Shown in pieces: positions 3,596 to 56,880 of a stretch of 61,059 bases of DNA; within the stretch, counting starts at the first letter, position 1, and every line of letters begins with the position of its first letter. Source of the DNA: an uncultured Methanosarcinales archaeon (GTDB lineage Archaea; Nanobdellota; Nanobdellia; Woesearchaeales; DSVV01); contig CAYLMH010000006.1 of assembly GCA_964385055.1 (NCBI GenBank), forward strand, positions 1 to 61,059, written 5' to 3'. Both the position numbers and the translations under genes were made by a program. The notes under the pieces are model-generated. The model was not told where the DNA came from, ran no database searches, and saw only the letters and a list, made by a program, of their open reading frames with translations.

Positions 3596-3691
3596 GCAAT
3601 GGAAAAATATAAGAGTCTTTAAAAAGAATATGTTCTTTAAAGAAAGAAAAGTAAGAACAAGTGAGTTACATTTTGAGATTAAGAAAATAAT

Positions 3692-3773: not shown

Positions 3774-3811
3774 TTGAACTTACTCTAAAAATATCTTAAA
3801 AAAAATAAAAA

Positions 3812-4270: not shown

Positions 4271-4285
4271 AATGTTTCATGGTCT

Positions 4286-4406: not shown

Positions 4407-4422
4407 TATTAAATTTAAGAAG

Positions 4423-35569: not shown

Positions 35570-36145
35570 CTATGGTATCCTATACAAATGTTTAACCATG
35601 TAATTCTCTTCTCCTTTATCAATAATTTCTTTAGGAGCATCTTTTGCAACAGGAGCTTCTTGAGGAACAGCAACAGGCTGCTGTTGTGGCGCTTGCTGAG
35701 GAGCAGGAGCTTCTTTCTTTGCGCCTTTGTAATTGATAAAATCCGCTTTATCTTTTATTTTCTTCAATGAATCTTCAAAATCAGGAGGAGGAAGTTGTTT
35801 GGGCTGCCACGTCAAAGAAATACCATCGTTTTCAAAGCGAGGAATAATATGAAGAGAAAGATGTCCTTTTGCGCCAGCGCCTGCGCCATTGTTACAAATA
35901 ATATTTGTCCCGTGTGATGCGAGTCCTTCATAGATCGCGCTTGCTGCGTAGCTTGCGACATAAAAGAGTTGGCTCGCGAGAGGATCAGGAAGTTGTTCCA
36001 GAGTCTCAACGTGATCTTTAGGAATAACATGAATATGCCCTACTGCAGCAGCGTCACTAGGAAGATACGCAAGACAAACTGCGTCTTCATAAACTATTTG
36101 TGCAGCAACATGTTTCTGGCTAATGGAGCAAAGAGGGCAGGTCAT
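35570..36145 (-). CDS. HIT-family protein (degenerate triad)
   Basis: CPLC, IVYED, GHIHVIPKDH, NNG..AG..HLSLHIIPR. Confidence 0.88.
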   Translation of the reverse strand: MTCPLCSISQKHVAAQIVYEDAVCLAYLPSDAAAVGHIHVIPKDHVETLEQLPDPLASQLFYVASYAASAIYEGLASHGTNIICNNGAGAGAKGHLSLHIIPRFENDGISLTWQPKQLPPPDFEDSLKKIKDKADFINYKGAKKEAPAPQQAPQQQPVAVPQEAPVAKDAPKEIIDKGEENYMVKHLYRIP

Positions 36146-37539
36146 CGTCGTTGTAACATTTCCCGATGAAGTCGAGAAATCAGATCAAGATCTGCTCCTT
36201 CTTGTTGTTCCTTTGGTTCTTCCTGTTCTTGCTGTTTCTTTGAAAGTGATTTTTTTGCAGATTTTTCCTGCTGTTCTTCAGCTTCTTCTTGTTGATCTTC
36301 CTGTTGTTCTTCAGAATGCTGTTCTTCACCCTCAGAAGATGATTCTTGTTCATTAGAAGCATGAAGCTTTTGAATGGATTCATCTTCTCCCTGAATTTGC
36401 GCAGGATTTTCTGCGTCAGGGATCTCGAGGTGTGGCGCAAGGTTTTTGAGCATCTCAGAATCAACAAGACTGCTTGCGAACTGTGTCGCAGAAGCAGTCT
36501 TTTCTTTAAATGGAGCAAGAATTTCCTGCACATCCTGTTCTTGATGAACATCGCGAGCAATCACAGCACGCTCTAACGCTTCAACATCAACGCCTTCAAA
36601 GATTTCCTTGAGTTCAGAAACTTGCTGAATTTTTTCTGTAAAAAGGAAGGTCTGTTTCAAAAGTAACTCTTTAAGTCTTGGATTATCGTTGACCAGATCA
36701 ACAAGTTCATCCATAGAGTACTTGGATTCTACTTTCTTTGCAGGAGCAAAATGCGCGATAATAGCATCAACATCAATGTTCGCGAACACCGATTTCAAGC
36801 GACTGCTTTGCTGCACTTGTTTCTTGAATTCTTCAGGATATTGAATAACAAATTGTTTGAGTTGATCATTGGATTCAACCAGTTTGATGACTGTTTCTTT
36901 GGTGTATCCTGCAGGTGAGCGAGCTGATGACGAAGGTTGTTGCAGTACTGATGGTTGTGGAGCAGAGGAGTATTCTTGTTCAACAGACGAAACTGGAGGA
37001 CGTACTTGTGTTTGCTGTGCTTCAACACGCGATTGTTCCTGTCCAGGAATGGGATAAAGCGAAGAACGCTGGCGGAGCATGATCGGAAGATTGTGCTTCA
37101 AGAGATTGAATGTTTCCTGCAATTTTGCTTTATCGATAATTCCTTTTTTAGGTTGGAAAAATTCAAGCCCATCTGGGGTTTCCCGAGGAATAAGATGCAG
37201 CATAAAGTGACTGCTCTGTTGTCCCGCAGCGTAGCCGTTTGCGATGAAAAGCGTGTTGCCAAAAAGGAGCATTCCTTCTTTCATCGCAGCAGAAAGCTGT
37301 TTTGTTCGCGTAAAAAGATGTTCAAAAAGAGGAGGAGGAATTAATGGCATGATAGGATAATGTTCTTTAGGCATAATGAGAAGATGTCCTTTCGCGGCGG
37401 GGTTGATATCAAGAATTGCGAGGAGTTGGTCATCTTCGTAGACTTTTTTGCTGGGAATTTCTCCTTTGACAATTTTGCAAAAAGGACATTGTGCTTTTTG
37501 GCTGTCAATTGCCTTTTGTTGTTCTGGAGAGAGCTGCAT
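36142..37539 (-). CDS. HIT-family protein (degenerate triad) with long C-terminal extension
   Basis: CPFCKIVKGEIPSKKVYED, GHLLIMPKEH, GQQSSHFMLHLIPR; two helical repeats + acidic tail; start moved to MQLSPE. Confidence 0.88.
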   Translation of the reverse strand: MQLSPEQQKAIDSQKAQCPFCKIVKGEIPSKKVYEDDQLLAILDINPAAKGHLLIMPKEHYPIMPLIPPPLFEHLFTRTKQLSAAMKEGMLLFGNTLFIANGYAAGQQSSHFMLHLIPRETPDGLEFFQPKKGIIDKAKLQETFNLLKHNLPIMLRQRSSLYPIPGQEQSRVEAQQTQVRPPVSSVEQEYSSAPQPSVLQQPSSSARSPAGYTKETVIKLVESNDQLKQFVIQYPEEFKKQVQQSSRLKSVFANIDVDAIIAHFAPAKKVESKYSMDELVDLVNDNPRLKELLLKQTFLFTEKIQQVSELKEIFEGVDVEALERAVIARDVHQEQDVQEILAPFKEKTASATQFASSLVDSEMLKNLAPHLEIPDAENPAQIQGEDESIQKLHASNEQESSSEGEEQHSEEQQEDQQEEAEEQQEKSAKKSLSKKQQEQEEPKEQQEGADLDLISRLHREMLQRR

Positions 37540-37623
37540 GGATGGATTTTGGAAAGAGCAATATTTAATGGTTTTGGTGCGATAAAGGAAAAGTATTAAA
37601 GAAATGAGAAGATAACAATACCC

Positions 37624-38685
37624 ATGAAATGGCTCTATAAAGTACAGAGGGAATTTCCAGCACATATTGTCTTTGTTCTAAAAGATGCGTATACCGCAGG
37701 GATGGAAAAAGTTTTGGGATGGGGAGACAAAGAATTTCTTTATGTTTTGAAAGACACTATTTTCATTTCGTATAGATCAAAAGAAAATGACCAAGAGTTA
37801 TATAATTTTTTCAGAGAAAAGGTGAAAAACAAAAGATTTCTTCAGAGTTTAAAAGAAAAGACAGAACAAGGAAGAGAACAATATGAAACAATGGTAACAG
37901 AGATCACAAAACAATGTAAAAAACAATGCACAGGGAAGGAGCTGGAACAGCTGTATGAAAAAGCATATGCCGCAGAGTATGTGTTATTGTCAATAATGAA
38001 TTTCACCTTATATTTTGAACAGGCTGGTCCTGTTCCAGAAGAAGCAAAGACTATGTTTGAAGAAATTGCAAAGATTCGAAATAAAATGGCAGAAACACTG
38101 TATGCTTTTTATCATCAAGAATATGGTGGACTTTTTACGAAGATAGGAAAGACACTAAACATTGCCCCTGCTCTTGTTTCTTTTATGTTTCCTGAAGAAA
38201 TAAAGGAATCGCTAAAGAAAGAAAAAGCAACAGTAGATGAAAAGACATTGAAAGAAAGAAAAAAACTCAGCGTGCTTATTGTAGAAAACAAAAAAGCAAG
38301 ATATATTGTCGGCAAAGACGCAGAGAAAATCTATGAAACATTGCAACCAAACACAAAAGAACTGAGAGAGATCAAAGGTCAAACAGCATATCCTGGAAAA
38401 GTTCAGGGGATTGTTTGTAAAGTAGAAACCCATGCAGAGCTCAAGAAAATAAAGCAAGGAGCTATTTTAATCACACCAATGACCTCTGTCACGTATGTTT
38501 CTTATTTAGAGAAAGTCGCAGCAATAGTCACGGATGAAGGAGGCATTATTTGTCATGCAGCATCCATTGCAAGAGAGATGAAAATCCCCACTATCATCGG
38601 CACAAAGATCGCAACAAAGATTCTCAAAGATGGAGATCTCGTAGAAGTGGATGCTGAAAAAGGGATTGTGAGGAAGATACAATGA
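37624..38685 (+). CDS. PEP-utilizing enzyme mobile (His-swivel) domain protein
   Basis: IKGQTAYPG...ILITPMT...VTDEGGIICHAASIAREMKIPTIIG; helical N-terminus, no ATP-grasp domain. Confidence 0.9.
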   Translation: MKWLYKVQREFPAHIVFVLKDAYTAGMEKVLGWGDKEFLYVLKDTIFISYRSKENDQELYNFFREKVKNKRFLQSLKEKTEQGREQYETMVTEITKQCKKQCTGKELEQLYEKAYAAEYVLLSIMNFTLYFEQAGPVPEEAKTMFEEIAKIRNKMAETLYAFYHQEYGGLFTKIGKTLNIAPALVSFMFPEEIKESLKKEKATVDEKTLKERKKLSVLIVENKKARYIVGKDAEKIYETLQPNTKELREIKGQTAYPGKVQGIVCKVETHAELKKIKQGAILITPMTSVTYVSYLEKVAAIVTDEGGIICHAASIAREMKIPTIIGTKIATKILKDGDLVEVDAEKGIVRKIQ

Positions 38686-40046
38686 CGTGGCAAAAGCTTT
38701 TAGCAAGAGAAGGCGTGGATATCACAACGATCTCTGGCTTAGACATTGTCTTTTACGATGCGGTCTGGCAATTTGCACAGAAAAAAGAAGAGTTATTTTT
38801 CACATATTTCCAGAGCAAGAATTTCACGCATTATATTGGAGTAGATCAAAAAGAAGTAGGAAGATTTCTGTACAAAAAATACTTCAATAGTCCAGAACAG
38901 ATTCAGAAATACGAGAAAGAAGGACAAATCCTCCTGAAAAATATACAGAAAACAACAGAGAAGTTGAAAAAAGAGAAGAGAGCGGAGACGCAGGAAGCGT
39001 TTCGTGAGTTCAGAGAACAGTTCATGCAAATCAACTATGTGTATAGTATTTTCTCTTGGCTTGCAATTGAAGCATGGCAGGCAGACTTTGAACAGCTTTT
39101 GAATGGGATGATCAAGAGAAATAAAGGAGAAAACAGGCAAGATGAAATTCTCACCGCAGCGTACAAACCGTGGAAAAACACTGCGCTTCATGAGATACAA
39201 GAAAAGATAAGCAAAGGTATTTCTCCAAAAAAGATAGCAGAAGAATATCAATTCCTGAGAAGCTGGTCTGTAGTGTGGTATAGATCTCTTGATGAATCGT
39301 GGGTAAGAAATATCACCGCTCAAGATCACAACAATACAAAAGCACTCACTCAAAAACAACTATTTGCTCTCCTTAATCCAACTCCTGAAGAAAAAAAGTT
39401 CTTAGAACTTGCGCCATACATTATTTTCTTCAAAGACTGGAGAGATGATCTAAGAAGAACGCATTGCTATTCATGGACCTTTTTGTTTGAAGAAATAGCG
39501 AAAGCATGGAAAGTAAAATATGAAGAAGTGGGATATCTCACATTAGATGAGATAGAAGCTGCATTAAAAAAAGAAAACAATCCAAGCAAAATAATTGCTG
39601 CAAGAAAAGAAAAGCCATGCATTATTACGTGTTTGGGAGAAGAGCTGAAAATAACAGTTATAGACAAAAACATACCTGAAAAGTATCGCAAAATAATAGA
39701 GGAGATAGAAAATAAAGGAAAAAATGAAATTGTAAAAGGTCTTGTTGCGTTTAAAGGAAAAATAACAGGCAAAGTCAAAATTGTGCGATCGTACCATGAT
39801 GTCAAAAATGTAGAGATTGGCGATATTTTGGTCGCAAACACCACACATCCTACATATCTTCCTGCCATGCAGAAAGCTGCAGCGTTTGTCACCAATGAAG
39901 GAGGCATCATCAGCCATGCAGCGATCGTTTCGCGAGAGATGAAGAAGCCATGTATTGTTGGCACAAAAATCGCAACCAAGATTCTGAAAGATGGAGATAT
40001 GGTTGAAGTAGACGCAGAAAAAGGAATCGTGAGGAAGATACAATGA
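38682..40046 (+). CDS. PEP-utilizing enzyme mobile (His-swivel) domain protein
   Basis: ILVANTTHP...VTNEGGIISHAAIVSREMKKPCIVG; FKDWRDDLR in the N-terminal helical domain. Confidence 0.9.
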   Translation: MTWQKLLAREGVDITTISGLDIVFYDAVWQFAQKKEELFFTYFQSKNFTHYIGVDQKEVGRFLYKKYFNSPEQIQKYEKEGQILLKNIQKTTEKLKKEKRAETQEAFREFREQFMQINYVYSIFSWLAIEAWQADFEQLLNGMIKRNKGENRQDEILTAAYKPWKNTALHEIQEKISKGISPKKIAEEYQFLRSWSVVWYRSLDESWVRNITAQDHNNTKALTQKQLFALLNPTPEEKKFLELAPYIIFFKDWRDDLRRTHCYSWTFLFEEIAKAWKVKYEEVGYLTLDEIEAALKKENNPSKIIAARKEKPCIITCLGEELKITVIDKNIPEKYRKIIEEIENKGKNEIVKGLVAFKGKITGKVKIVRSYHDVKNVEIGDILVANTTHPTYLPAMQKAAAFVTNEGGIISHAAIVSREMKKPCIVGTKIATKILKDGDMVEVDAEKGIVRKIQ

Positions 40047-40228
40047 CATTCACGCATTGGGACGATATGGATAAAAGAGCTTTTGGAATAGAGCAAGACT
40101 AGAAAGAATAGGAGAAAGAAAAAAGCTAATCACTAATTTTACATAGAACTCAAAGAACTGTTGATATGTTTATACTTCTCACTCCAACTTCCACAACCTT
40201 TAAAATACCAGAGACTCATCAATTCTTC

Positions 40229-41422
40229 ATGAAACTCTACGAATTCGAGGGAAAACAACTTCTCAAAGAAGCAGGAATCACTGTTCCAAGCGGATACGTA
40301 ATTGAAAATGCAGGAGAAATCCAAGAACCTGTAGGCGAAGTAGTGATCAAAGCGCAGACATTAGAAGGCAAACGAGGAAAAGCAGGACTTATCAAATCCG
40401 CAAAAACAAAAGAAGAGATTCAAACAACAACAAAACAACTCCTGAACAAACACCATGGCTTTGAAACAGTAAAAAAACTCCTCATCGAAACAAAGTGCAA
40501 AATAAAAAACGAGTTCTATCTCGCAATAACCTATGACACAAAAACAAGAAATCCGGTGATTATCGCAAGCAGCCATGGAGGAGTAGATATTGAAGAAACA
40601 AAAAATATCCATCCAAGCAAAGTGATTGTGGAACAAATAAACATCCTCAATGGCATCACAGAACATGAAGCAAAGCACATCCTTCACAAAGCAGGAATAA
40701 CCAATATCAACATGATCCAGCTCCTCGAAAAAATCTACCTGACATTCATAAACAGAGACATGAAACTACTTGAAATAAATCCACTCATTGAAACAGAGAG
40801 CCATGAGCTGATCGCGGCAGACGCAAAAATAATTCTTGACGACGATGCGTTGTTCAGACAAAATATTCAATTCCCTCAACGAGTGGGAATAGGCAGAGAA
40901 AAAACAGAAGCAGAAATCGCGGCAAACAAGGTCAACGAACTCGACCACAGAGGAATTGCGGGAAAAACATACATTGAACTAGAAGGAGACGTTGGCATTC
41001 TCGCGTCAGGTGGCGGCGCAAGTATTACTGCCGTAGATGCATTGATCAGCTACAATCAAAAGCCAGCGAATTATACAGAATACAGCGGAAATCCAAGTCC
41101 AGAAAAAGTTGAAGCATTAACAAGAGTTGTGATGAGTAATCCAAATCTCAAGGGATTATTTGTCGTCGGAGCAAAAGCAAACTTTACACAAATTCATGAG
41201 ACAATTGCAGCAATAATCAAAGTCATCAAAGAAATAAAACCTGAATATCCTATTGTCTTCAGACGCGCAGGCCCAGGAGATAAAGAAGCAAAAGAATTAG
41301 TAGAACAAACAGCAAAAGAACTCTGTTTAGACATGGAATGGTATGGGGATGAAACACCTATCACTGTTGCAGCGAAACGAATGGCTGAGAAAATAAAAGA
41401 AAGAAGACGCTGTGCTTGCTAG
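40229..41422 (+). CDS. ATP-citrate lyase beta-like / citryl-CoA synthetase large subunit (ATP-grasp)
   Basis: MKLYEFEGK, GKRGKAG, GGVDIE, LEINPL, DAK; GGGAS...PANYTEYSGNP is ACL-type rather than the SucC ANFLDVGG. Confidence 0.85.
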   Translation: MKLYEFEGKQLLKEAGITVPSGYVIENAGEIQEPVGEVVIKAQTLEGKRGKAGLIKSAKTKEEIQTTTKQLLNKHHGFETVKKLLIETKCKIKNEFYLAITYDTKTRNPVIIASSHGGVDIEETKNIHPSKVIVEQINILNGITEHEAKHILHKAGITNINMIQLLEKIYLTFINRDMKLLEINPLIETESHELIAADAKIILDDDALFRQNIQFPQRVGIGREKTEAEIAANKVNELDHRGIAGKTYIELEGDVGILASGGGASITAVDALISYNQKPANYTEYSGNPSPEKVEALTRVVMSNPNLKGLFVVGAKANFTQIHETIAAIIKVIKEIKPEYPIVFRRAGPGDKEAKELVEQTAKELCLDMEWYGDETPITVAAKRMAEKIKERRRCAC

Positions 41423-41460
41423 AAAAAAGATAGAAAAATAAAAAAACGCAAAGTAAAGAA

Positions 41461-41533
41461 AAAACACGCACCTGCAAAGGCAAAAATGTCAGGGGGACCC
41501 ATTCCCACATTAAGTGGGAATGGGGTATTTATT
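41461..41533. repeat. Structured intergenic element, family B copy 2
   Basis: AAAACACGCACC...GGGGACCC-[CCCATTCCCAC/GTGGGAATGGG]-GGGGTATTTATT. Confidence 0.75.
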
Positions 41534-41577
41534 AGTAAAAAAATAAAATACATACTAAAAAACAAAGAGGAAAAAAA

Positions 41578-42468
41578 ATGAGTATACTAATCAACGAAAA
41601 AACAAAAGTCCTTGTGCAGGGAATAACTGGAAAAGAAGGAATTCGAGCAACGCAGTTTATGCAATCCTACAAAACAAATGTCGTTGCAGGAGTCCGTCCA
41701 GGAAAAGGAGGAGAAATAGTAGAAGGAGTTCCTGTCTACAATAGTTGCAAAGAAGCAATGCAGGCACATCCAGACATCACCATCTCCATAATTATCGTCC
41801 CCGCAAAAGGAGCGAAAGACGCAGTGATTGAAGCGCTCGAAGCAAACATCAAGCTCATTAATGTCATTACAGAAAATATTCCTATCAAAGATACAGCATA
41901 TTGTGTCGCGCTAGCAAAAAAATACCATGCAACAATTATTGGTCCAACATCCATTGGAATAATCAGTCCTGGAATTGCAAAAGTCGGAATGATTGGTGGA
42001 TTAACAAGTGAACAGTTCAGTAAAGGAAATGTAGGAATCATTTCAAAGAGCGGCGGCATGTCTTCAGAAACAGCGTCTATTTTGACAAAAGCAGGAATTG
42101 GACAATCAACAGTCGTCGGCTGTGGCGCAGATGTTATCATGGGCACCAATTACGTGGAACTATTGGAAATGTTCAAAAGCGATGAAGAAACAAGAGTGAT
42201 TGTTCTATTTGGAGAAATTGGTGGAACAGCAGAAGAAGACGCTGCAGAATATATCAAACAAACAAACTATTCAAAACCAGTGGTTGCGTTTATTTCTGGA
42301 AAGTTTGCAGAGATGCTCCCTTCAACAACATTGGGGCATGCAGGGGCGATCATTGAAGAAGGCAAAGGAACGCGAGCGGCAAAAGTCGCTGCATTAAGTT
42401 CCGCAGGCGTTCATGTCGTTGAAGTGCATCATGAGATTGTGGAGAAAGTGAAAGAACTTCTTAGATAA
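41578..42468 (+). CDS. CoA-ligase alpha subunit (SucD-like; citryl-CoA synthetase small subunit)
   Basis: VLVQGITG, IIGPTSIG, SKSGG, FGEIGG, phospho-His motif LGHAGA. Confidence 0.92.
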   Translation: MSILINEKTKVLVQGITGKEGIRATQFMQSYKTNVVAGVRPGKGGEIVEGVPVYNSCKEAMQAHPDITISIIIVPAKGAKDAVIEALEANIKLINVITENIPIKDTAYCVALAKKYHATIIGPTSIGIISPGIAKVGMIGGLTSEQFSKGNVGIISKSGGMSSETASILTKAGIGQSTVVGCGADVIMGTNYVELLEMFKSDEETRVIVLFGEIGGTAEEDAAEYIKQTNYSKPVVAFISGKFAEMLPSTTLGHAGAIIEEGKGTRAAKVAALSSAGVHVVEVHHEIVEKVKELLR

Positions 42469-42513
42469 CATTCTTCCACAAGCAATATAAACAACCAATT
42501 CTTAACAAATACA

Positions 42514-43287
42514 ATGGAACAAGGCTGGAAAACATCTATCAGTGTTGCGACAGAGGAAAAAACACTCATCAGAGGCTATAATGTTGAAGACCTGATGACC
42601 AAATGCAATTTCACTCAGGCAATCTGGTTGCTTTGGAAAGGAGAATTTCCAAATAAAAAAGAAGAAGCATTGTTCAACACAATTCTTATCAGCGCAATGG
42701 AGCACGGCATCACCCCTCCATCAATTACCGCAGCGCGAATCGCATATTCTGGTTCAGGGCAAATGAACAGCGCAGTTGCAGCAGGCATTCTCGCGATTGG
42801 TCAGCATCATGGCGGCGCGATGGAACAATGCGCGCAACTCCTTCATTCGCATATCGATGAAGAAATGAAAAACAAATCAGCAGAAGAGATCGCGAAGCAT
42901 ATTGTGGACAATATGATGGAAAGAAAGCAACGTATTCCAGGGTTTGGCCACAAAATCTACACAGACCATGATCCACGAGCGCAAGCGATTTTTCAACAAG
43001 CAAAGAAAGCAGGCTATGCAGGAAAATATATTGAAACAGTGCAAAAAGTAGAATCATATTTAGAAAAGAAGAAAGGGAAAAAACTCTGCATCAACATTGA
43101 TGGCGCGATTGCGGCAGTGATGCTCGAAATGGGTTTTGACTGGAAGATTGGAAGAGGATTTTTCATTTTACCAAGAACCGCAAGTATTATTGCGCATGTT
43201 CATGAAGAAGCGTGCAAAGAGAAACCGTTTAGAAGATTAGAAGATAAAGAAACAGCATATTCTGGTGTGAAAGAAAGAAAACTGTAG
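42514..43287 (+). CDS. Citryl-CoA lyase (citrate-synthase-like fold)
   Basis: IRGY, MEHG..PS, HGGA, IPGFGHKIY..DPR, NIDGAIAA; 257 aa, shorter than citrate synthase. Confidence 0.88.
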   Translation: MEQGWKTSISVATEEKTLIRGYNVEDLMTKCNFTQAIWLLWKGEFPNKKEEALFNTILISAMEHGITPPSITAARIAYSGSGQMNSAVAAGILAIGQHHGGAMEQCAQLLHSHIDEEMKNKSAEEIAKHIVDNMMERKQRIPGFGHKIYTDHDPRAQAIFQQAKKAGYAGKYIETVQKVESYLEKKKGKKLCINIDGAIAAVMLEMGFDWKIGRGFFILPRTASIIAHVHEEACKEKPFRRLEDKETAYSGVKERKL

Positions 43288-43357: not shown

Positions 43358-44083
43358 ATGACAATAACGCCTGTTGATAGAAGAGACAAAAAAGGAATAA
43401 TACAAATGTATTTAGAATTGGGGTTTATAGTACTAGAGGATGCAGTTGATCCAAGAATAGGAAAAATAATTAGGGACAGAATTCCAGAGTATGTCAGACA
43501 AAGAACAAACAACTTTGCGCACCCTTTTGAAAGAATAACAGAAGATTTTCACACAAGAAGCCTTGACTTAGAACAAGAAGTAGAAGATCAGAAAGTAAAA
43601 AGATGGCAAGTGTGTTGGGGTTATCGTGAACAAGCAAGACCAAACGAGTTAGAGCTAGAAAGAATTTTAAGAGAGCTGATGCTACAATATATTGTTGGAC
43701 CTTCTCAAACGATAAAAGCAATAGCAGAACATCATGGAATACCGCGCCCCAAAAGATATCTTCCAACACTTGATATGTATTTTTATAGAAATTTATCTCA
43801 ACAAAGAAAAGAATGGAAGCTCCCTTGGCACACAGATACCACAGCGGTACTGGCAATGAGAAATGGAGAAGAAGGAGTTATAGAAGTGGAATCACCAATT
43901 ACCCGGGAGAAGTATGTAATTGCTACAAAGCCAAACGTAGAAGTCATTGGTTTTGGGGAGAAAATGATTGGATATCTAAGAAAGAATAGTATTGAACCAA
44001 AAATAGCTGAAACATCCCATCGCGTTGTGATCCCTGCGGGATATGAAACAAGAACTTCTTTTACGTTCGGATTACAGATTTAA
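43358..44083 (+). CDS. Putative 2OG-Fe(II) oxygenase
   Basis: LPWHTD (HxD) ... SHRV ... RTS at canonical relative positions. Confidence 0.6.
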   Translation: MTITPVDRRDKKGIIQMYLELGFIVLEDAVDPRIGKIIRDRIPEYVRQRTNNFAHPFERITEDFHTRSLDLEQEVEDQKVKRWQVCWGYREQARPNELELERILRELMLQYIVGPSQTIKAIAEHHGIPRPKRYLPTLDMYFYRNLSQQRKEWKLPWHTDTTAVLAMRNGEEGVIEVESPITREKYVIATKPNVEVIGFGEKMIGYLRKNSIEPKIAETSHRVVIPAGYETRTSFTFGLQI

Positions 44084-47185: not shown

Positions 47186-48121
47186 ATGACGAACCTGAAA
47201 ACAACCATTGGAGGAATTCCACTGGAAACCTATTTCTTCAACGCGTCTGGTCCAAAATGCACAACAATCGAACATTTGGAAGCACTAGGCGCGTCAAAAA
47301 GCGCAGTCATTCTCTCAAAATCTTGCACATATGAACCACGAGAAGGAAATCCCGAACCCCGATACAAAGAACTCAATCTCGGCTCAATAAACTCCATGGG
47401 TTTGCCGAATCTCGGCTACATAACATATGGAGAATTCGCTCCAATTCTAAAAAACAAATTCAAGAAGCCATACTTTGTCAGTGTGTCTGGATTAAAGCTA
47501 GAAGACAATATAAAAATCATCAATCACTTCAACACCATTCCAGAAATTGATGCGTATGAATTAAATCTCTCATGCCCAAATATTGTAGGAAAACCACAAG
47601 TATGTTATGATTTCGAACAAACAGAAGTAGTGCTGCGGGAAATCACAAAGATCAGCAAAAAGCCGCTTGGCGTCAAACTATCTCCATATTTTGATTTTGT
47701 GCACTTTGAACAAATGGCAGCAATACTAAATAAGCACAACATCAAATTCGTTGTCTGCATTAATTCCGTCGGTAACGCATTATTTATCGATCCAGAAACA
47801 GAAACAGTCGTGATCAAGCCAAAAGGAGGTTTCGGCGGTCTTGGAGGACAATACATCAAACCAATTGCACTCGCAAATGTGAAAAAATTTAGAGAGCTCC
47901 TCAGAGCAGACATAGACATCATTGGTGTTGGAGGAATTCAAACAGGAATTGACGCGTTTGAATTCTTGTTGGCAGGAGCAAGTGCAGTGCAAATCGGCAC
48001 AACACTGCAAAAAGAAGGTCCAGCATGTTTTGAGCGATTGGATAATGAATTAAGAGTATGTTTAGAGAAGAAAGGATACGCGAGTATTGATGACGCGAAA
48101 GGAAAATTAAAGATTTTGTAA
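47186..48121 (+). CDS. pyrD: Dihydroorotate dehydrogenase, class 1A
   Basis: FNASG, PREGNPEPRY, INSMGLPN, ELNLSCPN, KPKGGFGGLGG. Confidence 0.95.
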   Translation: MTNLKTTIGGIPLETYFFNASGPKCTTIEHLEALGASKSAVILSKSCTYEPREGNPEPRYKELNLGSINSMGLPNLGYITYGEFAPILKNKFKKPYFVSVSGLKLEDNIKIINHFNTIPEIDAYELNLSCPNIVGKPQVCYDFEQTEVVLREITKISKKPLGVKLSPYFDFVHFEQMAAILNKHNIKFVVCINSVGNALFIDPETETVVIKPKGGFGGLGGQYIKPIALANVKKFRELLRADIDIIGVGGIQTGIDAFEFLLAGASAVQIGTTLQKEGPACFERLDNELRVCLEKKGYASIDDAKGKLKIL

Positions 48122-48133
48122 GAAGGTGAAACA

Positions 48134-48784
48134 ATGGTAGGAACAACAGAAGCATACATAGCACAAGTATTGTTAGAAACAGAAGCAGTGATGATAAGAC
48201 CATCACAACCATTTACATACGCATCTGGGTTAAAGAGCCCAATTTATTGTGACAATCGCCGAGTGCTCTCATTTCCAGATAAAAGACAGATAGTTGTACA
48301 CAGATTTCTCGAAACAATTGAAAGAGAAGGAATTACATATGATGTAATTGCAGGTGTTGCAACTGCAGGAATTCCTTGGGGAAGCATAATTGCAGATAAG
48401 CTTGATGCACCATTCATCTATATAAGAGACAAAGCAAAAGGACATGGAAAGGAAAACCAAATAGAAGGAAAATTGGAGCCAGGACAACGTGCATTAGTTA
48501 TTGAAGACCATATTAGTACTGGAGGAAGCAGCATTAAAGCAATTGAAGCAGTACGAAATGCTGGAGGGATTGTAGAATATTGTCTAGCAATCACCACATA
48601 TGAAATGTTAAGTGCGCAAGAAGCATTCGAAGCAGCAAAATGCAAGCTTTACACACAAACACGATTACAAGATTTAGTGAAAGAAGCGATTAGACTTGAG
48701 AGAATGAGCGAGAATCAAAGAGCAATTATTGATGACTGGAAACAAGATCAAGCAGGATGGGCAGCAAGACACGGCTTTGAATAA
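48134..48784 (+). CDS. pyrE: Orotate phosphoribosyltransferase
   Basis: FTYASGLKSPIYCDNR, RDKAKGHG, VIEDHISTGGS. Confidence 0.96.
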   Translation: MVGTTEAYIAQVLLETEAVMIRPSQPFTYASGLKSPIYCDNRRVLSFPDKRQIVVHRFLETIEREGITYDVIAGVATAGIPWGSIIADKLDAPFIYIRDKAKGHGKENQIEGKLEPGQRALVIEDHISTGGSSIKAIEAVRNAGGIVEYCLAITTYEMLSAQEAFEAAKCKLYTQTRLQDLVKEAIRLERMSENQRAIIDDWKQDQAGWAARHGFE

Positions 48785-48795
48785 AAGGTGAAACA

Positions 48796-49674
48796 ATGAC
48801 AATGAACTACCTTGACCAGCTGAAACAGCGTGCAGATGAAACAGGATCCATCATCTGCATGGGCATTGATCCACAACTGGACAAGATAGCAAAAGTGCAG
48901 CCAAATCAAAAATTAGAAGACAAAGATGTGCAAAAAGCAGTAACAGAATTTTATATCAACATTTTACAAGAATGTGAAAGACAAGGAATTTTCCCTGCGG
49001 CAGTAAAACCAAATCTCGCCTATTTTGAAAGAGGAAGAAAGCGATACAGATTATTGGAAGCATTGGATGCAATCAATGCAGAGTGCAGAAGACTAAATAT
49101 TCCCATTATCGGAGACGCGAAACGAGGAGACATCGGCGCGTCAAGTGAAGCGTATGCAGAAGCGCTGTTCCATCCAGAGGAATGGAACTTTAACGCAATT
49201 ACTATTGCGCCATACATGGGAGAAGACTCCATAATGCCTTTTGTAAACTACTGTGACACCGGAAAAGGAGTCTATATTCTTTTGCGAACGTCAAATCCTG
49301 GAAGAAAAGATATCCAAGATATCAATGGCACATACAGACATGTCGCAGAACTCATAGGGAAGCCATGGTACAAAAAAGGCATAGGCGCAGTGTTTGGCGG
49401 TACAGGCGGCACAGAAGAATTAGAAGAAGTAAGTAGATTTTATGTGAGTTGCGGAGTAGAAATTCCTTTCCTTATTCCAGGAATCGGAAAACAGGGAGGA
49501 AGCTTAGAAGAAGTTGTTGCTGCGTTAAGAAGAAGCGGTACAGATCTAAGAATTCACCGAATAAATGCGTCCTCAGACATTAATTGGGCATACGAAAAAG
49601 AGGGAAACCCTAACGACTACGCAGGAGCAGCTGTCCGTGCATTACAGAGAATGAATGAGAAAGTCCAACTGTAA
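48796..49674 (+). CDS. pyrF: Orotidine-5'-phosphate decarboxylase (type 2)
   Basis: MGIDP, KPNLAYFE, DAKRGDIG, TSNPG, LIPGIGKQGG. Confidence 0.95.
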   Translation: MTMNYLDQLKQRADETGSIICMGIDPQLDKIAKVQPNQKLEDKDVQKAVTEFYINILQECERQGIFPAAVKPNLAYFERGRKRYRLLEALDAINAECRRLNIPIIGDAKRGDIGASSEAYAEALFHPEEWNFNAITIAPYMGEDSIMPFVNYCDTGKGVYILLRTSNPGRKDIQDINGTYRHVAELIGKPWYKKGIGAVFGGTGGTEELEEVSRFYVSCGVEIPFLIPGIGKQGGSLEEVVAALRRSGTDLRIHRINASSDINWAYEKEGNPNDYAGAAVRALQRMNEKVQL

Positions 49675-49746
49675 ACACACTTTTGATTTTTTTTCTCTTT
49701 TTCAAAACATTAATATAGAATCCTTCTAAAAAACAGCAGAACCGCA

Positions 49747-50277
49747 ATGAAAATAAGAACAAAAAACCTAGAACTTGTTCCCGTCCATCCAAAATACGTG
49801 AATGCAGTGTACAAGATCATTAAAGAAGAAAATAAAGAACTCTCGAGTTGGACAACAATTCCATTTCCCATAACAAAAAAGAAGATAAGAGAATATTATC
49901 AAGAAGGAAAGAGAAATGATGATAGTATTTTCATCATAAAAAACAAAACAGGAGAGGTTATGGGATCCATTAATTTTCTGTACAGAAAAAGAAGTAATAG
50001 CGGAGCAATAGGATATTGGCTAGGGAGAGACTATCGAAATAAAGGATATATGACTGAAGCAGTAAAAAAGATGATGGAGTATGGCTTCAGAAGAAAGGGC
50101 GTCGTGCGCATAGACATAACTGCATTAGAGCAAAACATCCCATCGCAAACAGTAATTAAAAAATGCGGATTTATCTACGAAGGAACACAACGAATGGCAG
50201 CGTTAAATGGCCTCAACCAATACGGAAATCTGAGGATGTACAGTATTCTCAAAAACGAATTTGAAAAAAAAGAATAG
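49747..50277 (+). CDS. GNAT N-acetyltransferase (RimJ/RimL-like)
   Basis: AIGYWLGRDYRNKGYMTEA, NIPSQTVIKKCGFIYEG. Confidence 0.92.
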   Translation: MKIRTKNLELVPVHPKYVNAVYKIIKEENKELSSWTTIPFPITKKKIREYYQEGKRNDDSIFIIKNKTGEVMGSINFLYRKRSNSGAIGYWLGRDYRNKGYMTEAVKKMMEYGFRRKGVVRIDITALEQNIPSQTVIKKCGFIYEGTQRMAALNGLNQYGNLRMYSILKNEFEKKE

Positions 50278-50330
50278 GATAGAAAAGAGGAAAGAATAGC
50301 TTTATAATTCCTAAAAAAACACCAAAAAAG

Positions 50331-51713
50331 ATGGTAAATAATATTGTCATTGAAGGGCAAATAGTAGGACATGACAACGTATTCTCTGGACAAATTGCAA
50401 TTGATCAAGAAACAGGACTTATTACAAGAGTAGAGAAAGGCGCAGGACTCTTCAAAAAAAGATCAATCGGAAATCCTAACTATATATTTCCCGAAAGCGT
50501 TCTTATATTTCCTGGATTTGGAGACATCCATATTCACGCGCGAGAAGATGAAACAGGAAAGCAATGCTACAAAGAAGACTACGCAACTGTCAACGCAGCA
50601 GCACTTCATGGAGGTGTCGTTCATACAAGTGACATGCCAAACACCCCTGCGCCACTGATCACTTCTCCGCAATTTCGCTGGCATCAGCACCGCTGCAATG
50701 GGTACGAAGTCACCATGTTCCATTATGTAGGAATTGGTCCAGAGACAAGACCATTAGAAGAAGAAGCCGCGTACAAAGTGTTTACAGGCCCATCTGTGGG
50801 AACGCTTTTTTTTAGAAACAAAGAAGAATTAAGAAATAGACTCCAATATTATAGAAGAAAAAGAGTCAGCGTTCATGTAGAAGATTTTGATATTCTAGAA
50901 GCAAACAAAACACAACCAACACACGCAGCAAGAAGACCAGTAGAGTGCGTAGAAAAAGCACTAGAATATGTTCTACAAATTATCGAAGAGTATGAGCTTG
51001 ACGCAAAACTCTGTCATTGGCCTGTTGGTGGAAAAAGTTTTGACATGATTGCAAAACATCGAGCAAGAGGATACAACACTTCGTTAGAAGTTTCTCCACT
51101 TCATCTCTTCTATGACGCAGATATGCTGAAAGAAAAACCAGAACTCTGGCCGTATGTACAAATGAACCCCGCATTGCAAGGAAGAGAACACAGACTTGCG
51201 TTGATTGAGGCACTCAAAAGTGGATTCATACAGTATCTTGCGACAGATCACGCGCCACACACATTAGAAGAAAAGTTTAAGCAGTTCAAAACAGAAGAGC
51301 AAGAACAATTGGGAATGACTCCTGAACAATATTACAAGCATCTGAAAGAGACTAATGTAGAACGATGTAGAGAACTTGCATGTAAAGACAGTACATCAGG
51401 AACACCGCAATTAGACACTTATGGTCTTATCGCTACATGGCTCATGAAAGAGCATGGATTTATGCCACAAGACATTGCGCGAGTTTGCGCAGAAAATCCA
51501 GGTAATTTTGTCAACCAACTGCATGTAGGACCAGGGAAGTTTGGAAGAATAGAAGTAGGATATTATGGATCACTGACGCTTCTCGATACAACAAAACCAA
51601 CAACAGTGCGACGAGAAGACCTAAAAACAAAAGCAGGATGGTCTCCATTTGAAGGAGTGACCTTCCCCGGCAGTGTTGCTGGAACATTCATAAAGGGCAT
51701 TCGGTATAACTGA
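50331..51713 (+). CDS. pyrC: Dihydroorotase (amidohydrolase family)
   Basis: DIHIHARE, DMPNT, HVED, MNPALQ, ATDHAPH, KAGWSPFEG. Confidence 0.9.
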   Translation: MVNNIVIEGQIVGHDNVFSGQIAIDQETGLITRVEKGAGLFKKRSIGNPNYIFPESVLIFPGFGDIHIHAREDETGKQCYKEDYATVNAAALHGGVVHTSDMPNTPAPLITSPQFRWHQHRCNGYEVTMFHYVGIGPETRPLEEEAAYKVFTGPSVGTLFFRNKEELRNRLQYYRRKRVSVHVEDFDILEANKTQPTHAARRPVECVEKALEYVLQIIEEYELDAKLCHWPVGGKSFDMIAKHRARGYNTSLEVSPLHLFYDADMLKEKPELWPYVQMNPALQGREHRLALIEALKSGFIQYLATDHAPHTLEEKFKQFKTEEQEQLGMTPEQYYKHLKETNVERCRELACKDSTSGTPQLDTYGLIATWLMKEHGFMPQDIARVCAENPGNFVNQLHVGPGKFGRIEVGYYGSLTLLDTTKPTTVRREDLKTKAGWSPFEGVTFPGSVAGTFIKGIRYN

Positions 51714-51841
51714 AAGATTTTCGGAAAAAAACAATTTTGCCGAAAAAATTCCCAGAAATTCTAGGTTTTTTTCGGATAGTCCGAAAGATATTCGGAAAAA
51801 CAGAAGATAGAGATTTATTAACTAAAGTTCTAAGAAAAGCA

Positions 51842-53044
51842 ATGGAACTTTTCATAGAACTTATCATTGCAATAACAGCAGGAATTATCTGTGGCATTGG
51901 AACAGGTCTTGCTCCAGGAATCCACGTCAATCTAGTCGTCACGCTTCTCGTTACCATAGCAGCAACACTTCTACAATACGCAGAACCAATAACGCTCTGC
52001 GTTTTCATTGTCGCACTCTCTGTCACCCATATATTTTTAGAAATTCTCCCAAGCATTTTCTTAGGTTGTCCAAATCCAGAAACAGCATTAAGCGTACTTC
52101 CAGGGCATCGCTATCTTATTGCAGGAAACGGATTAATGGCAGTAAAACTCAGTATTATCGGCTGTTTCTTTGGGATCATAGGAGGAGTGCTCTGTATGTA
52201 TCCCTTAATCTACATTCTTCCAAAAATATACAACCTCATCAAAGAATACATGGCATTTTTACTGATACTCATTATCATTGCAATGCTCCTGCAAAATAAA
52301 AAAAGAATATGGGCAGCAGTTGTTTTTCTTCTTGCAGGAATAACAGGACTTTTGGTTTTTGCATTGCCAATAAAAGATCCGCTGTTTCCGCTGCTCAGCG
52401 GCCTTTTTGGAATCGCGACATTGATTATGAGTTTGTTTGAAAAAGAAAATATTCCCAAGCAATATGACACAGAAATGATTGACGTAGACAAAAGAGCAGC
52501 AGGGAAAGCAATCGTTGCAGGGCAGCTCAGCGCAGCATTTATTTCGTTGTTTCCTGGGTTAAGCCCAAACATCGGTGCGTTGTTTGGCATGCAGTTCGCA
52601 AAAAATATAGGAGATCATGGATATATGATTCTGCAAGGATGTATCAACGCAACAGGCTTCTTAATGAGTATTATTACCCTCTACACAATCCAAAAAGCGA
52701 GAAATGGCGCGATTGTGGGAATAGAAGAACTTCTTGGCACAATAGGAATAAGAGAAGTGCTTCTATTCACCGCAGCGATTCTCATTACTGCAGCAATCGC
52801 AGCAATGATCACGCTCAAAACAGGAAAGATGTTTTGCAAAATAGTGACGAGAATAAACTACAAAATCTTGACAGGAATAATTATCACAGTGATCATTCTT
52901 TTAACAATCATCCTTTCAGGCTGGCTTGGATTACTTGTACTCCTCACGACAACAGCGATAGGAATTATTCCAGGGATTGTGAAAGTGACAAGAACGCAGG
53001 CAATGGGGTGTTTGTTGGTGCCGACATTGGGGTATTACTTATGA
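51842..53044 (+). CDS. Tripartite tricarboxylate transporter TctA-family permease (archaeal DUF112-like)
   Basis: GLAPGIHVN, EILPSIFLGCP..ETALSVLPGHR, FPGLSP; start moved to MELFIE. Confidence 0.9.
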   Translation: MELFIELIIAITAGIICGIGTGLAPGIHVNLVVTLLVTIAATLLQYAEPITLCVFIVALSVTHIFLEILPSIFLGCPNPETALSVLPGHRYLIAGNGLMAVKLSIIGCFFGIIGGVLCMYPLIYILPKIYNLIKEYMAFLLILIIIAMLLQNKKRIWAAVVFLLAGITGLLVFALPIKDPLFPLLSGLFGIATLIMSLFEKENIPKQYDTEMIDVDKRAAGKAIVAGQLSAAFISLFPGLSPNIGALFGMQFAKNIGDHGYMILQGCINATGFLMSIITLYTIQKARNGAIVGIEELLGTIGIREVLLFTAAILITAAIAAMITLKTGKMFCKIVTRINYKILTGIIITVIILLTIILSGWLGLLVLLTTTAIGIIPGIVKVTRTQAMGCLLVPTLGYYL

Positions 53045-53481
53045 GAGGATGGATAAGACCGAAAAGAGCAAGAATAGTAGTAGATGCAAACATTATAATC
53101 GCAGCACTCTTCGGATCAAGAGCAACACTAATAATTCTAACAGCACAAAACTACTCTTTTTATGCACCGCAATATATTATAAAAGAGATAAGAAAACATG
53201 AAGAAGATATTTGTAAAGAAGCAAAAAAGATGCCTGAAGAATTTGAGAATGAAATACGTGCATTGCTAAGATATATTACCATAGTAAATGAAAGTGATTA
53301 CAGCAACTGCATGAACAAAGCAGAAGAGATAATGAAAAAGAGAGATATAAAAGATGCTACGTATATTGCAACTGCGCTCAGAATAAATGCAGATTTTATC
53401 TGGACAAATGATAAAGATTTTAGAGAACAAAAGATAGTAAAAACAAAGAACACAAATGAGTTCATTGAAGACAATAAATAA
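53041..53481 (+). CDS. PIN-domain protein (VapC-like)
   Basis: IVVDANIIIAAL, DIKDATYIATAL, IWTNDKDF; true start 53041 overlaps the tctA stop. Confidence 0.9.
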   Translation: MRGWIRPKRARIVVDANIIIAALFGSRATLIILTAQNYSFYAPQYIIKEIRKHEEDICKEAKKMPEEFENEIRALLRYITIVNESDYSNCMNKAEEIMKKRDIKDATYIATALRINADFIWTNDKDFREQKIVKTKNTNEFIEDNK

Positions 53482-55431: not shown

Positions 55432-56880
55432 TTAAGAAAGAACGATAATAACTCCTGTATTTGCATTCAATTCAACAAAGTCTCCAGTTTTTATAACAAA
55501 AGATGCGCCTTTTGTTCCAACAATACAGGGAATATTAAATTCACGGGAAATAACAGATGCATGAGAACAAATTCCCCCTTCATCTGTAATAATTCCTACT
55601 GCTTTTTCAATAAGAGGAACCATGAGTGGGGACGTCATTGTGGTCACAAGAATTTCTCCATTCTGAAATACTGCACAATCTTGAATAAAAGAGTGAAGAT
55701 CTTTGACATTAATAACTCGTGCTTTAGCCCGCACTAAACCTTTGTTCGCAATAACTCCTTTCAAATTCTGTGCTCTTATTTCTTTCTGCTCTTGAATAAG
55801 TTTCTCTTTGTAAGCAAGAGCTTCCTCCCCTGAGTAACGATAAACCGTTGGAGAAATATAATGCAACACCATGCACTTCCTTCTTTTCTGAATTTCTCCT
55901 AAAGAGAGTCGTTGATTTGTATCTAAAAAAGCCATAATATCTAAAAAGAAGTATGCTACAATAAAGTCATTGAATGGAATATCAATCCTTTTTTGAAGTT
56001 CATATAACAGATTCAGACACAAATATTCTGCACCACTCCAGACATGCTTTAACCGATATCTGTATAAACCACTTTTTTGTAAAATAATGCTATAATCAAT
56101 AAGTGTTTCATTTTGTATTTCAGAATAGATCTGGCTATGTTTCTTCTTTATTTTGTTTAGATGCGTATTGATTCTTTCAAACTCTTCAGAAAAAGGTTTA
56201 TTTTTTTCTTGCTGCAATTTATGGTGAAGAAATTCAGTTACTTCTTTTTTTGAGTATGTATTGAAAAAAAGTGCAGGATATTTCTTTGAATATATTTCTA
56301 ACTCTTTTTCTGAAACCTTTCTTTTCTCTGCGAGTTTAAGAAAATCAAGTCGCTCTTTCATTGTATCATCCATATCTGATGGAGTACTGAGAGAAATGAA
56401 ATAGTCATTGACAATTTCTTCATCATCAACTTTCTCTTTAAGGATTCGCCTTATTTCTTCTTCTATCATAAAAGTTCCTTGTGGGCTTGATGTTCCAAAA
56501 TAGATAAAAGTCCTGTTTAAGAAATCCTGATATTTGAGGAGAAGCTGCTTAAGTTCTGCATTTGATAAGGAGTGCAGATTTTTCTTTTGAAGATCTTCGC
56601 AAAACACAAAAAAATCATCAATGAAATTATCCATCTCTCTAAATAATTGTTGAGAAACATCTTTGTTACAATATCTTTTTCCGCTCTTTCGCCAGTTCTG
56701 AATAGCCGTATCAGGCATATAATTTGCATATGTTCCATCAATAATAATGTTTAAACATTCGTTAATTGTAGAGGAAACAAATTTTCCATCTTGTGTGATG
56801 GAATGCATCATTTCAAAAAGCATTGCCTCAGCAATCATGGCAGATTGTTTCTGCCCCCACATAAAGTTATATTTTGCCAT
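55432..56880 (-). CDS. PEP-utilizing enzyme mobile (His-swivel) domain protein
   Basis: LKGVIANKG...ILVTTMTSP...ITDEGGICSHASVISREFNIPCIVG. Confidence 0.9.
   Translation of the reverse strand: MAKYNFMWGQKQSAMIAEAMLFEMMHSITQDGKFVSSTINECLNIIIDGTYANYMPDTAIQNWRKSGKRYCNKDVSQQLFREMDNFIDDFFVFCEDLQKKNLHSLSNAELKQLLLKYQDFLNRTFIYFGTSSPQGTFMIEEEIRRILKEKVDDEEIVNDYFISLSTPSDMDDTMKERLDFLKLAEKRKVSEKELEIYSKKYPALFFNTYSKKEVTEFLHHKLQQEKNKPFSEEFERINTHLNKIKKKHSQIYSEIQNETLIDYSIILQKSGLYRYRLKHVWSGAEYLCLNLLYELQKRIDIPFNDFIVAYFFLDIMAFLDTNQRLSLGEIQKRRKCMVLHYISPTVYRYSGEEALAYKEKLIQEQKEIRAQNLKGVIANKGLVRAKARVINVKDLHSFIQDCAVFQNGEILVTTMTSPLMVPLIEKAVGIITDEGGICSHASVISREFNIPCIVGTKGASFVIKTGDFVELNANTGVIIVLS

Follow-up and report, generated by a model that had tools for sequence, protein, structure and literature searches.

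Citryl-CoA synthetase (CCS; CcsA/CcsB, KEGG K15232/K15233) and citryl-CoA lyase (CCL; KEGG K15234, NCBIfam PRK06224 group) are the split counterpart of ATP-citrate lyase (ACL), an enzyme in which the alpha subunit and the lyase are fused, and their occurrence in Aquificae is well established (Aoshima et al. 2004, cited after the preprint bioRxiv 10.1101/2022.10.25.513756). The preprint reports CCS/CCL homologues in DPANN archaea and in the Candidate Phyla Radiation (CPR), where they are mis-annotated as succinyl-CoA synthetase (SCS) or citrate synthase, calls the transition from CCS to ACL "less clear" and presents separate trees for CCS/SCS and for ACL. CCS, CCL and ACL were also recorded in a few metagenome-assembled genomes (MAGs) of deep-sea vent DPANN archaea (PMC8091004). 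The subject of the present work is a trio of clustered genes on contig CAYLMH010000006.1, within a stretch of 61,059 nucleotides that is here called the window, for a CcsA-like large CCS subunit (beta), a CcsB-like small CCS subunit (alpha) and a CCL (Ccl). CCS/CCL homologues in DPANN and CPR having already been reported in 2021-2022, the trio is a further case of a known system; the literature search found no description of the ACL-type pocket of its clade, of the motif gradient in which this pocket stands or of the GlmU neighbourhood of its relatives.

The reading preferred here, to which a probability of about 65% is given, is that the trio encodes a CCS/CCL-type, ATP-dependent citrate cleavage whose role would be biosynthetic and not autotrophic, yielding acetyl-CoA and oxaloacetate from citrate that the cell obtains. 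Substrate, direction and physiological role are predictions, and the biosynthetic role is favoured because no tricarboxylic acid (TCA) cycle gene was found in the 61 kb and because the trio is spread in genome-reduced DPANN and CPR organisms. In a first step beta would bind ATP by its ATP-grasp domain and citrate in its ACL-type pocket, alpha would bind CoA and carry the phosphoryl group on His254, and citrate, ATP and CoA would be converted to citryl-CoA, ADP and phosphate by way of phosphohistidine and citryl-phosphate. In a second step the separate lyase of 257 residues, with its His/His/Asp triad, would cut citryl-CoA into acetyl-CoA and oxaloacetate. The citrate would come from a partner or from the environment, and the role would be analogous to that of cytosolic ACLY in eukaryotes.

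A close known counterpart, the CcsA/CcsB/Ccl system of Hydrogenobacter thermophilus (PDB 6hxq, 6hxp; EC 6.2.1.18, 4.1.3.34), is likewise made up of three separate polypeptides, and these have the domain architecture seen in the window; the CcsB-type indels recur in alpha, and the catalytic His as well as the His/His/Asp triad are conserved in both. The two systems differ in clade, in the citrate pocket of beta (GGGGS/ANFTDIGG/ANNT in H. thermophilus, GGGAS/ANYTEYSG/ANFT in the window) and in gene context, since ccsA of H. thermophilus stands alone and serves the reductive TCA (rTCA) cycle, whereas the three genes of the window are clustered and have no TCA context. In the Nitrospirota (Leptospirillum-type) system, ccsA, ccsB and ccl form a cluster of uniform orientation (locus L089), like the trio of the window, but in the order ccsA-ccsB-idh-ccl-acn, in a carbon-fixation context and with Aquificae-type motifs. 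At its N-terminus the CcsB of that locus (L089:7395-8666) has some 100 additional residues, Lys/Ala-rich, histone H1-like and weakly matched by PF07382 HC2, which no other alpha examined has.

A preliminary description of this DNA had proposed three genes at 40229-43287, namely a beta subunit with an ACL-type GGGAS...ANYxEYSGxP motif, a SucD-like alpha with GHAG and a separate citrate-synthase-fold lyase of about 257 residues, and had read them together as a split, ACL-like citrate cleavage system; each of these elements was found again in the three plus-strand open reading frames (ORFs) listed in Table 1, and the core of this reading is supported by structures, trees and indels. The beta subunit matches the Pfam families PF08442 ATP-grasp_2 (E 1.5e-42) and, at 85.5 bits for a cutoff of 26.8, PF16114 "ATP citrate lyase citrate-binding", and remains below the cutoff of the NCBIfam SucC equivalog (241 bits, cutoff 370). 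Its best PDB match is H. thermophilus CcsA (6hxq_B, 196 bits), followed at lower scores by T. thermophilus SucC (168 bits) and Chlorobium AclB (134 bits); when the C-terminal substrate domain is taken alone, CcsA scores 96 bits, Chlorobium AclB 77, Methanothrix ACL 56 and T. thermophilus SucC 54. Some homologues of beta already carry automated labels of this kind: one is tagged K15232 by its source, and several are named "citryl-CoA synthetase large subunit" by JGI.

The four citrate-pocket motifs of beta are of the ACL type and not of the SucC or Aquificae CcsA type. SucC has GAGLx / ANFLDxGG / I---xR / xRxxGx; CcsA of Aquificae and Nitrospirota has GGGGS / AN[FL]TDIGG / TA[NS]NTR / VRRxGP; a subgroup of the window's clade found in Acidobacteria, Chloroflexi and Micrarchaeota has GGGGS / ANYTEYGG / xANNTR / xR[RK]xGP; the window, most Woesearchaeota and CPR have GGGAS / ANYTEYSG / xANFTx / xRRxGP; and ACL has GGGAS / ANY[AG]EYSG / IANFT[DN] / VRRGGP. 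Arranged in this order, from SucC through Aquificae CcsA and the GGGGS/ANNT and GGGAS/ANFT subgroups to ACL, the motifs form a gradient. The SucC substrate motifs GAGLx, ANFLDxGG and GGIxR are missing from the window's beta, and insertions that include the "AN" of the ANFT motif are common to the beta of its clade, to CcsA and to ACL and are missing in SucC. The alignment confirmed the numbering of human ACLY (GGGAS 281-285, ANYGEYSG 302-309, ANFT 345-348, VRRGGP 377-382), and beta F319 occupies the position of ACLY F347, where Aquificae CcsA has Asn. ACLY reportedly contacts citrate through G309, N346, T348 and R379, and the window's beta has a matching residue at each of these positions (G287, N318, T320 and R346).

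Alpha combines PF02629 CoA_binding with PF00549 Ligase_CoA and lies below the cutoff of the NCBIfam SucD equivalog (310 bits, cutoff 336); the top NCBIfam matches of both synthetase subunits are in fact SucC and SucD models, all under their curated cutoffs. Two indels are common to alpha, CcsB and ACL and are not found in SucD: an IGG-xxx insertion after the "MIGG" position (residues 139-146) and an insertion of two to three residues before GHAGA (residues 245-251). His254 is conserved across the family and stands at the position of ACLY H760, and Glu99 stands at that of ACLY E599, a residue that is non-discriminating, being Glu in SucD as well.

The lyase is covered by the C-terminal part only of PF00285 Citrate_synt (profile positions 162-353/357, E 1.4e-44). 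It exceeds the cutoff of NCBIfam NF004869 "citryl-CoA lyase" (297 bits, cutoff 212) and those of NF004866 and NF004868, and is far under cutoff on every NCBIfam citrate synthase model. Its best PDB match is H. thermophilus Ccl (6hxp_A, 220 bits), with citrate synthases at 80 bits or less and ACL lyase modules at 65 bits. His99, His146, Asp196 and the DPR motif are conserved across the family, and the catalytic motifs correspond to H274, H320 and D375 of pig citrate synthase. The C-terminal catalytic part with its triad is shared with citrate synthase and 2-methylcitrate synthase (PF00285), but the window's lyase has NIDG in place of the N[VT][DE]FY of citrate synthases; by sequence, the third gene product is a truncated protein of the CCL type and not a full citrate synthase.

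Neighbour-joining trees (200 bootstraps) were built with reference sequences recovered from PDB alignments, together with Aquificae/Nitrospirota CcsA and the ACLs of Chlorobi and Nitrospira with their neighbouring genes. As the phylogeny proposed in the preliminary description turned out, all three proteins fall within CCS/CCL/ACL: the window's clade with CcsA and ACL is separated from SucC at bootstrap 1.0 in the beta tree (0.97-1.0 in every alignment partition tested), the window's clade with CcsB and ACL from SucD at 1.0 in the alpha tree, and the window's clade with Ccl and the ACL module from citrate synthase at 0.985 in the lyase tree. A grouping of beta with SucC was not recovered, and the identification as CCS/CCL stands. 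The CcsA proteins of Aquificae and Nitrospirota form a clade of their own at 1.0, with the window's family outside it, and ACL is likewise monophyletic at 1.0; judged from these sequences, the window's beta belongs to a sister or related clade, apart from the biochemically characterised CcsA of Aquificae and Nitrospirota.

The clade is widespread. A pattern scan of 185,579 GTDB species genomes recovered relatives of beta in 533 species, mostly DPANN and CPR, and locus details were taken from the best 80 loci. These 80 include DPANN members (Woese-, Iain-, Micr-, Aenigmat- and Nanoarchaeia), CPR members (Woyke-, Davies-, Kerfeld-, Staskawicz-, Ryan- and Doudnabacteria, Microgenomates) and others (Blastocatellia/Chloracidobacterium, Actinomycetota MAGs, Anaerolineae/Caldilineae, a Heimdallarchaeote and an alphaproteobacterial MAG). 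The order beta-alpha-Ccl on the same strand is kept in 65 of them, and also in contigs of Woesearchaeota, Micrarchaeota and CPR; about 8 of the remaining loci are cut by a contig end, and about 7, mainly of the Acidobacteria type, have no Ccl within 6 kb. The order survives while the operon is repeatedly interrupted, and the spacers tolerate insertions, because unrelated genes sit between the trio genes in close relatives (Table 1): the spacers of L001 hold ORF163 and RlaP, and those of L092 hold an ACT_7 gene, a NUDIX gene and two small ORFs. As a separate observation, L013, L017 and L021 carry beta and alpha of the GGGGS/ANYTEYGG/ANNT subgroup with no Ccl within 5-6 kb, and L015 carries beta alone, with neither alpha nor Ccl found; these four are Actinomycetota, Chloracidobacterium and Blastocatellia MAGs, in which Ccl may be located elsewhere in the genome or be absent.

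ACL itself (AclB/AclA of Chlorobium, Nitrospira and Methanothrix; eukaryotic ACLY) has the same four beta pocket motifs as the window, and the equivalents of ACLY E599, H760 and F347 are present as alpha E99, alpha H254 and beta F319; the overall chemistry is presumably the same. It differs in the fusion of alpha with the lyase, which in the window are separate ORFs, with a stop codon and 45 bp between them; in the lyase module, which has lost the first catalytic His (PRFGGA, His to Phe) that the window's Ccl keeps (HHGGA); and in a longer insertion after IGG than in the window's alpha. The preliminary description had suggested that the family may be an evolutionary intermediate of ACL, and here the results are mixed: the beta of the window's clade does group with ACL at 0.84 (0.77-0.88 on all columns), but the value falls to 0.38 once the four pocket motifs (31 columns) are left out and is 0.01 on the ATP-grasp half. 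The beta indels conflict as well, a 1-residue indel being shared by the window's clade and ACL and a 4-5-residue insertion by CcsA and ACL, and the alpha and Ccl trees do not resolve the branching order of the window's clade, CCS and ACL. After motif removal, domain splits, other distance corrections and the indel survey, a sister relationship to ACL was not accepted as shown, because its support comes from the pocket motifs only, and an intermediate position is only suggestive.

A single locus among those examined resembles ACL in gene structure. L041:7171-8865 (+) encodes a 564-residue alpha-Ccl ORF with CoA_binding, Ligase_CoA and Citrate_synt domains, as in the ACL large subunit, and its nearest relatives have separate alpha and Ccl genes with gaps of 9-13 bp or an 11-bp overlap. 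The ORF may be a genuine fusion or may stem from misassembly; it shows, though as one case, how easily an ACL-type fusion can arise, and alpha-Ccl fusion as a common feature of the family was rejected. These observations bear on the alternative that the three subunits form a non-covalent, ACL-like holoenzyme, with a Ccl tetramer at the core, CCS modules around it and citryl-CoA channelled between them. Such a three-subunit ACL would suit the full ACL-type pocket, including the Phe at the F347 position (a residue whose role in ACLY is described in PMC10115795) where Aquificae CcsA has Asn, the tight alpha-Ccl linkage in several loci (gaps of -11 to +13 bp) and the L041 fusion. It is nonetheless considered unlikely, as the window's genes lie 155 and 45 bp apart, the unrelated genes inserted in close relatives argue against a strict need for co-translation, and the L041 fusion is that one, possibly misassembled, case.

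Pfam scans of about 55 ORFs in the window detected no aconitase, isocitrate dehydrogenase (IDH), 2-oxoacid:ferredoxin oxidoreductase, fumarase, fumarate reductase or malate dehydrogenase, in agreement with the earlier remark that no rTCA genes lie nearby, and no TCA gene family was seen among the recurrent neighbours in 82 loci; membership of the trio in an rTCA module was therefore found neither within the 61 kb nor in these neighbours. When the flanking ORFs of the 82 loci were clustered without prior assumptions, the sole strongly recurrent neighbour, present in 29, was a nucleotidyltransferase with a hexapeptide acetyltransferase, whole or split in two genes, the next real neighbour families reaching at most 8 of 82. 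The best NCBIfam match of this GlmU-type neighbour is TIGR03992 "Arch_glmU", a model of a bifunctional sugar-1-phosphate nucleotidylyltransferase/acetyltransferase; its full-length copies reach 250-272 bits, slightly short of the cutoff of 292. In about 15 loci, CPR and DPANN alike, it immediately precedes beta in the same orientation, ending 0-800 bp before it (L018, L025, L052, L069, L073, L065, L068, L082, L087, L036, L050, L022, L034, L037, L077), and genes for GlmS, UDP-sugar dehydrogenase and epimerase also recur near the trio in relatives.

GlmU-type enzymes consume acetyl-CoA, and because the most frequent neighbour is of this type, the neighbourhood hints that citrate cleavage would supply acetyl-CoA for amino-sugar synthesis; the acetyl-CoA of the relatives is probably used in part for amino-sugar N-acetylation. 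A wider proposal, that the window's clade is both the closest living unfused relative of ACL and a non-carbon-fixing acetyl-CoA supply of genome-reduced symbionts, often coupled in an operon to Arch_glmU for UDP-N-acetylglucosamine and hence the cell envelope, is tentative and, as a whole, rather doubtful.

The opposite direction was also weighed. Ccl would then condense acetyl-CoA and oxaloacetate, and CCS would convert citryl-CoA, ADP and phosphate to citrate, CoA and ATP, giving an energy-limited anaerobe an ATP-conserving citrate synthase. ACL as a whole catalyses a near-equilibrium reaction, Desulfobacter reportedly uses ACL in the oxidative, ATP-forming direction, and the scanned ORFs of the window include no conventional citrate synthase, all of which would accommodate such a use. 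This reverse operation appears slightly less probable still than the holoenzyme, for neither the window nor the set of recurrent neighbours from the 82 loci includes an aconitase or IDH that would use the citrate, the recurrent Arch_glmU consumes acetyl-CoA and so fits its production, and CPR and DPANN genomes generally do not have the remaining TCA cycle (PMC8091004).

Action of a CCS/CCL-like set on another hydroxy-acid, for example cleavage of 2-methylcitrate to propionyl-CoA and oxaloacetate, is compatible with the inclusion of 2-methylcitrate synthases in the citrate-synthase fold, with their weak NCBIfam matches to the lyase and with the biochemically uncharacterised status of the family, but beta conserves the residues that align with the citrate site of human ACLY and no sign of propionate metabolism was seen in the neighbourhood, which makes it improbable. 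A divergent succinyl-CoA synthetase (SucCD) beside a truncated or degenerate citrate synthase, as public names such as "succinate--CoA ligase subunit beta", the top NCBIfam matches and the SucD match of alpha in the PDB might suggest, is hardly credible given the sub-cutoff scores on all SucC/SucD models, the CCS/ACL insertions and missing SucC substrate motifs of beta, the trees that separate both subunits from SucC and SucD at bootstrap 1.0 and the lyase score of 297 bits on a citryl-CoA lyase model against far sub-cutoff scores on citrate synthase models. SucC/SucD do have a homologous fold and a phosphohistidine mechanism in common with beta and alpha, and they score high against alpha and against the ATP-grasp half of beta; the differences lie in substrate-site motifs, indels, model scores and trees.

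Several points weigh against citrate cleavage as the function of the trio. The characterised H. thermophilus proteins are distant (phmmer scores 196-226 bits), the family to which the trio belongs is biochemically uncharacterised, and citrate as the substrate is deduced from sequence. The ATP-grasp half of beta matches T. thermophilus SucC nearly equally (168 bits), and the best PDB match of alpha is A. pernix SucD, at 278 bits compared with 226 for CcsB, an excess that is read as a branch-length effect because the trees and indels side with CcsB/ACL. The scan for TCA genes covers 61 kb of the genome, and such genes may lie elsewhere. No GlmU-like gene is present in the window, so that the argument from an acetyl-CoA sink is drawn from relatives that are phylogenetically non-independent. 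A possible citrate importer is encoded in the window by a TctA-family gene (large subunit of tripartite tricarboxylate transporters), with no TctB or TctC seen alongside; it lies 8.5 kb downstream of the trio, and none occurs within 6 kb of any related trio locus, for which reason TctA was rejected as a conserved partner and is kept as a lead only.

The identification matters first for annotation, as the genes are widely labelled succinyl-CoA ligase, acetate-CoA ligase or citrate synthase and can cause false calls of a partial TCA or rTCA cycle. If citrate is cleaved, a single scavenged metabolite would provide genome-reduced symbionts with both acetyl-CoA and oxaloacetate, and the repeated operon link to GlmU suggests a destination of the former. 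Whether human ACLY cleaves citryl-CoA in its synthetase (ASH) domain or in its citrate-synthase-like (CSH) module is still disputed (PMC10115795), and a natural split system with a complete ACL-type beta pocket, including the F347 equivalent, offers a direct test case. The family may document steps from succinyl-CoA synthetase-like ancestors to ACL, the present trees leaving the branching order open. The window's clade, large and biochemically uncharacterised, is a useful natural test case for the mechanism and evolution of ACL.

The host, an archaeon whose relatives are DPANN (Woesearchaeota-like), comes from groundwater. The window, of about 38% GC, is archaeal and contains an archaeal RNase P RNA (18534-18855, 137 bits); its sequence is present in groundwater metagenome runs, and the nearest named homologues of beta are from Woesearchaeota and other DPANN. 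RNA-level evidence was sought among the runs that contain the window sequence, and these were DNA metagenome runs only. An alternative in-frame ATG at 40166 would extend beta by 21 residues, to 418; it was rejected, and 40229 is the likely start, because every homologue has an N-terminus of the form M[KNR]L[YF]E[FY]E and the TATA-like element falls inside this extension. The arrangement is consistent with a transcript from 40229, possibly leaderless or with a short leader of the archaeal type.

The spacer of 155 nt between beta and alpha folds with z = -6.06 and contains a terminator-like hairpin with a perfect 11-bp stem, the single occurrence in the window, with 0 expected by chance. It is possibly a terminator, an attenuator or a processing signal. 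The hairpin was not found in L001, a relative of 83% identity, and that spacer in L092 holds the ACT_7 gene; it was rejected as a conserved element and is lineage-specific.

Table 1. Coordinates of the trio, of its sequence elements and of other features. Positions are those of the window unless preceded by a locus number; residues are numbered in the respective protein.
Feature	Position	Strand	Size or residues	Remarks
HIT-family proteins, adjacent, upstream	35570-36145; 36142-37665	-		Arrangement kept in L001 and L002
PEP-utilizers paralogues	37624-38685; 38682-40046; 55432-56880	+; +; -		C-terminal phosphohistidine swivel domain is the only recognisable part
TATA-box-like element TTTAAAATA	40199-40207	+		22-30 nt upstream of beta ATG; read from sequence; AT-rich context, weak evidence
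Beta gene, CCS large (CcsA-like) subunit	40229-41422	+	397 aa	N-terminal ATP-grasp, C-terminal ACL-type citrate-binding domain
Beta motif GGGAS	41009-41023	+	261-265	Aligns with human ACLY G281-S285
Beta motif ANYTEYSG	from 41066	+	280-287 (ANYTEYSGNP 280-289)	Aligns with ACLY A302-G309
Beta motif ANFT	within 41009-41275	+	317-320	Aligns with ACLY A345-T348
Beta motif FRRAGP	within 41009-41275	+	344-349	Aligns with ACLY V377-P382
Perfect hairpin CCCATTCCCAC-ATTAA-GTGGGAATGGG	41498-41524	+	11-bp stem	Within beta-alpha spacer; followed by T-rich tail
Shine-Dalgarno-like GAGG	41567-41570	+		Upstream of alpha start
Alpha gene, CCS small (CcsB-like) subunit	41578-42468	+	296 aa	CoA-binding Rossmann, phosphohistidine loop
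Alpha CoA-binding motif QGITGKEG		+	14-21	
Alpha phosphohistidine loop GHAGA	42334-42348	+	253-257	His254 codon 42337-42339
Lyase gene, citryl-CoA lyase (Ccl)	42514-43287	+	257 aa	Citrate-synthase fold without N-terminal part
Lyase catalytic His	42808-42810	+	99	
Lyase catalytic His	42949-42951	+	146	
Lyase DPR motif		+	153-155	
Lyase catalytic Asp	43099-43101	+	196	
Orphan ORF directly 3' of Ccl	43358-44083	+	241 aa	
Pyrimidine genes	47186-51713	+		DHO_dh, phosphoribosyltransferase, OMP decarboxylase, then GNAT acetyltransferase, dihydroorotase-like amidohydrolase
TctA-family gene	51737-53044	+		PF01970, 160 bits
ORF with PIN_2 domain	52639-53481	+		About 400 bp overlap with TctA 3' end; domain from residue 145
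Genes inserted between beta, alpha and Ccl in relatives (including Fic)	L001:10196-11749; L092:2369-2743, 3630-4739; L005:8201-9499			

Of the genes around the trio, the two PEP-utilizers genes upstream were considered as partners and rejected, as they accompany the trio only in close relatives and in one Micrarchaeota contig and a third paralogue lies elsewhere; they are probably members of an expanded family. Their N-terminal 280-400 residues have no Pfam match, and that of the 454-residue protein no PDB match either. Genes of this type may underlie the "phenylphosphate / PEP synthase" entries of MAG surveys. In the Micrarchaeota contig, L007, a PEP-utilizers-type gene flanks the trio. The second of the HIT proteins farther upstream (507 residues) has a long, low-complexity C-terminal half rich in Gln, Glu and Ser.

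Downstream of the trio follow an orphan ORF, LemA, an M48 peptidase, a NUDIX gene, pyrD/E/F/C and the TctA gene. The orphan ORF gave, in Pfam, a sub-threshold match to GIDE only (19.8 bits, cutoff 23.6), no NCBIfam match and no homologue in L001-L087; its position in close relatives is taken by a PIN_2 gene or by nothing. A link between the trio and pyrimidine synthesis, through oxaloacetate and aspartate, was rejected, pyrD and pyrC being found near the trio only in the near-identical L001 and L002, with pyrD weakly in L003, and in 0 of the 80 GTDB loci. The true start of the ORF with the PIN_2 domain that overlaps the TctA gene probably lies well downstream of the listed one.

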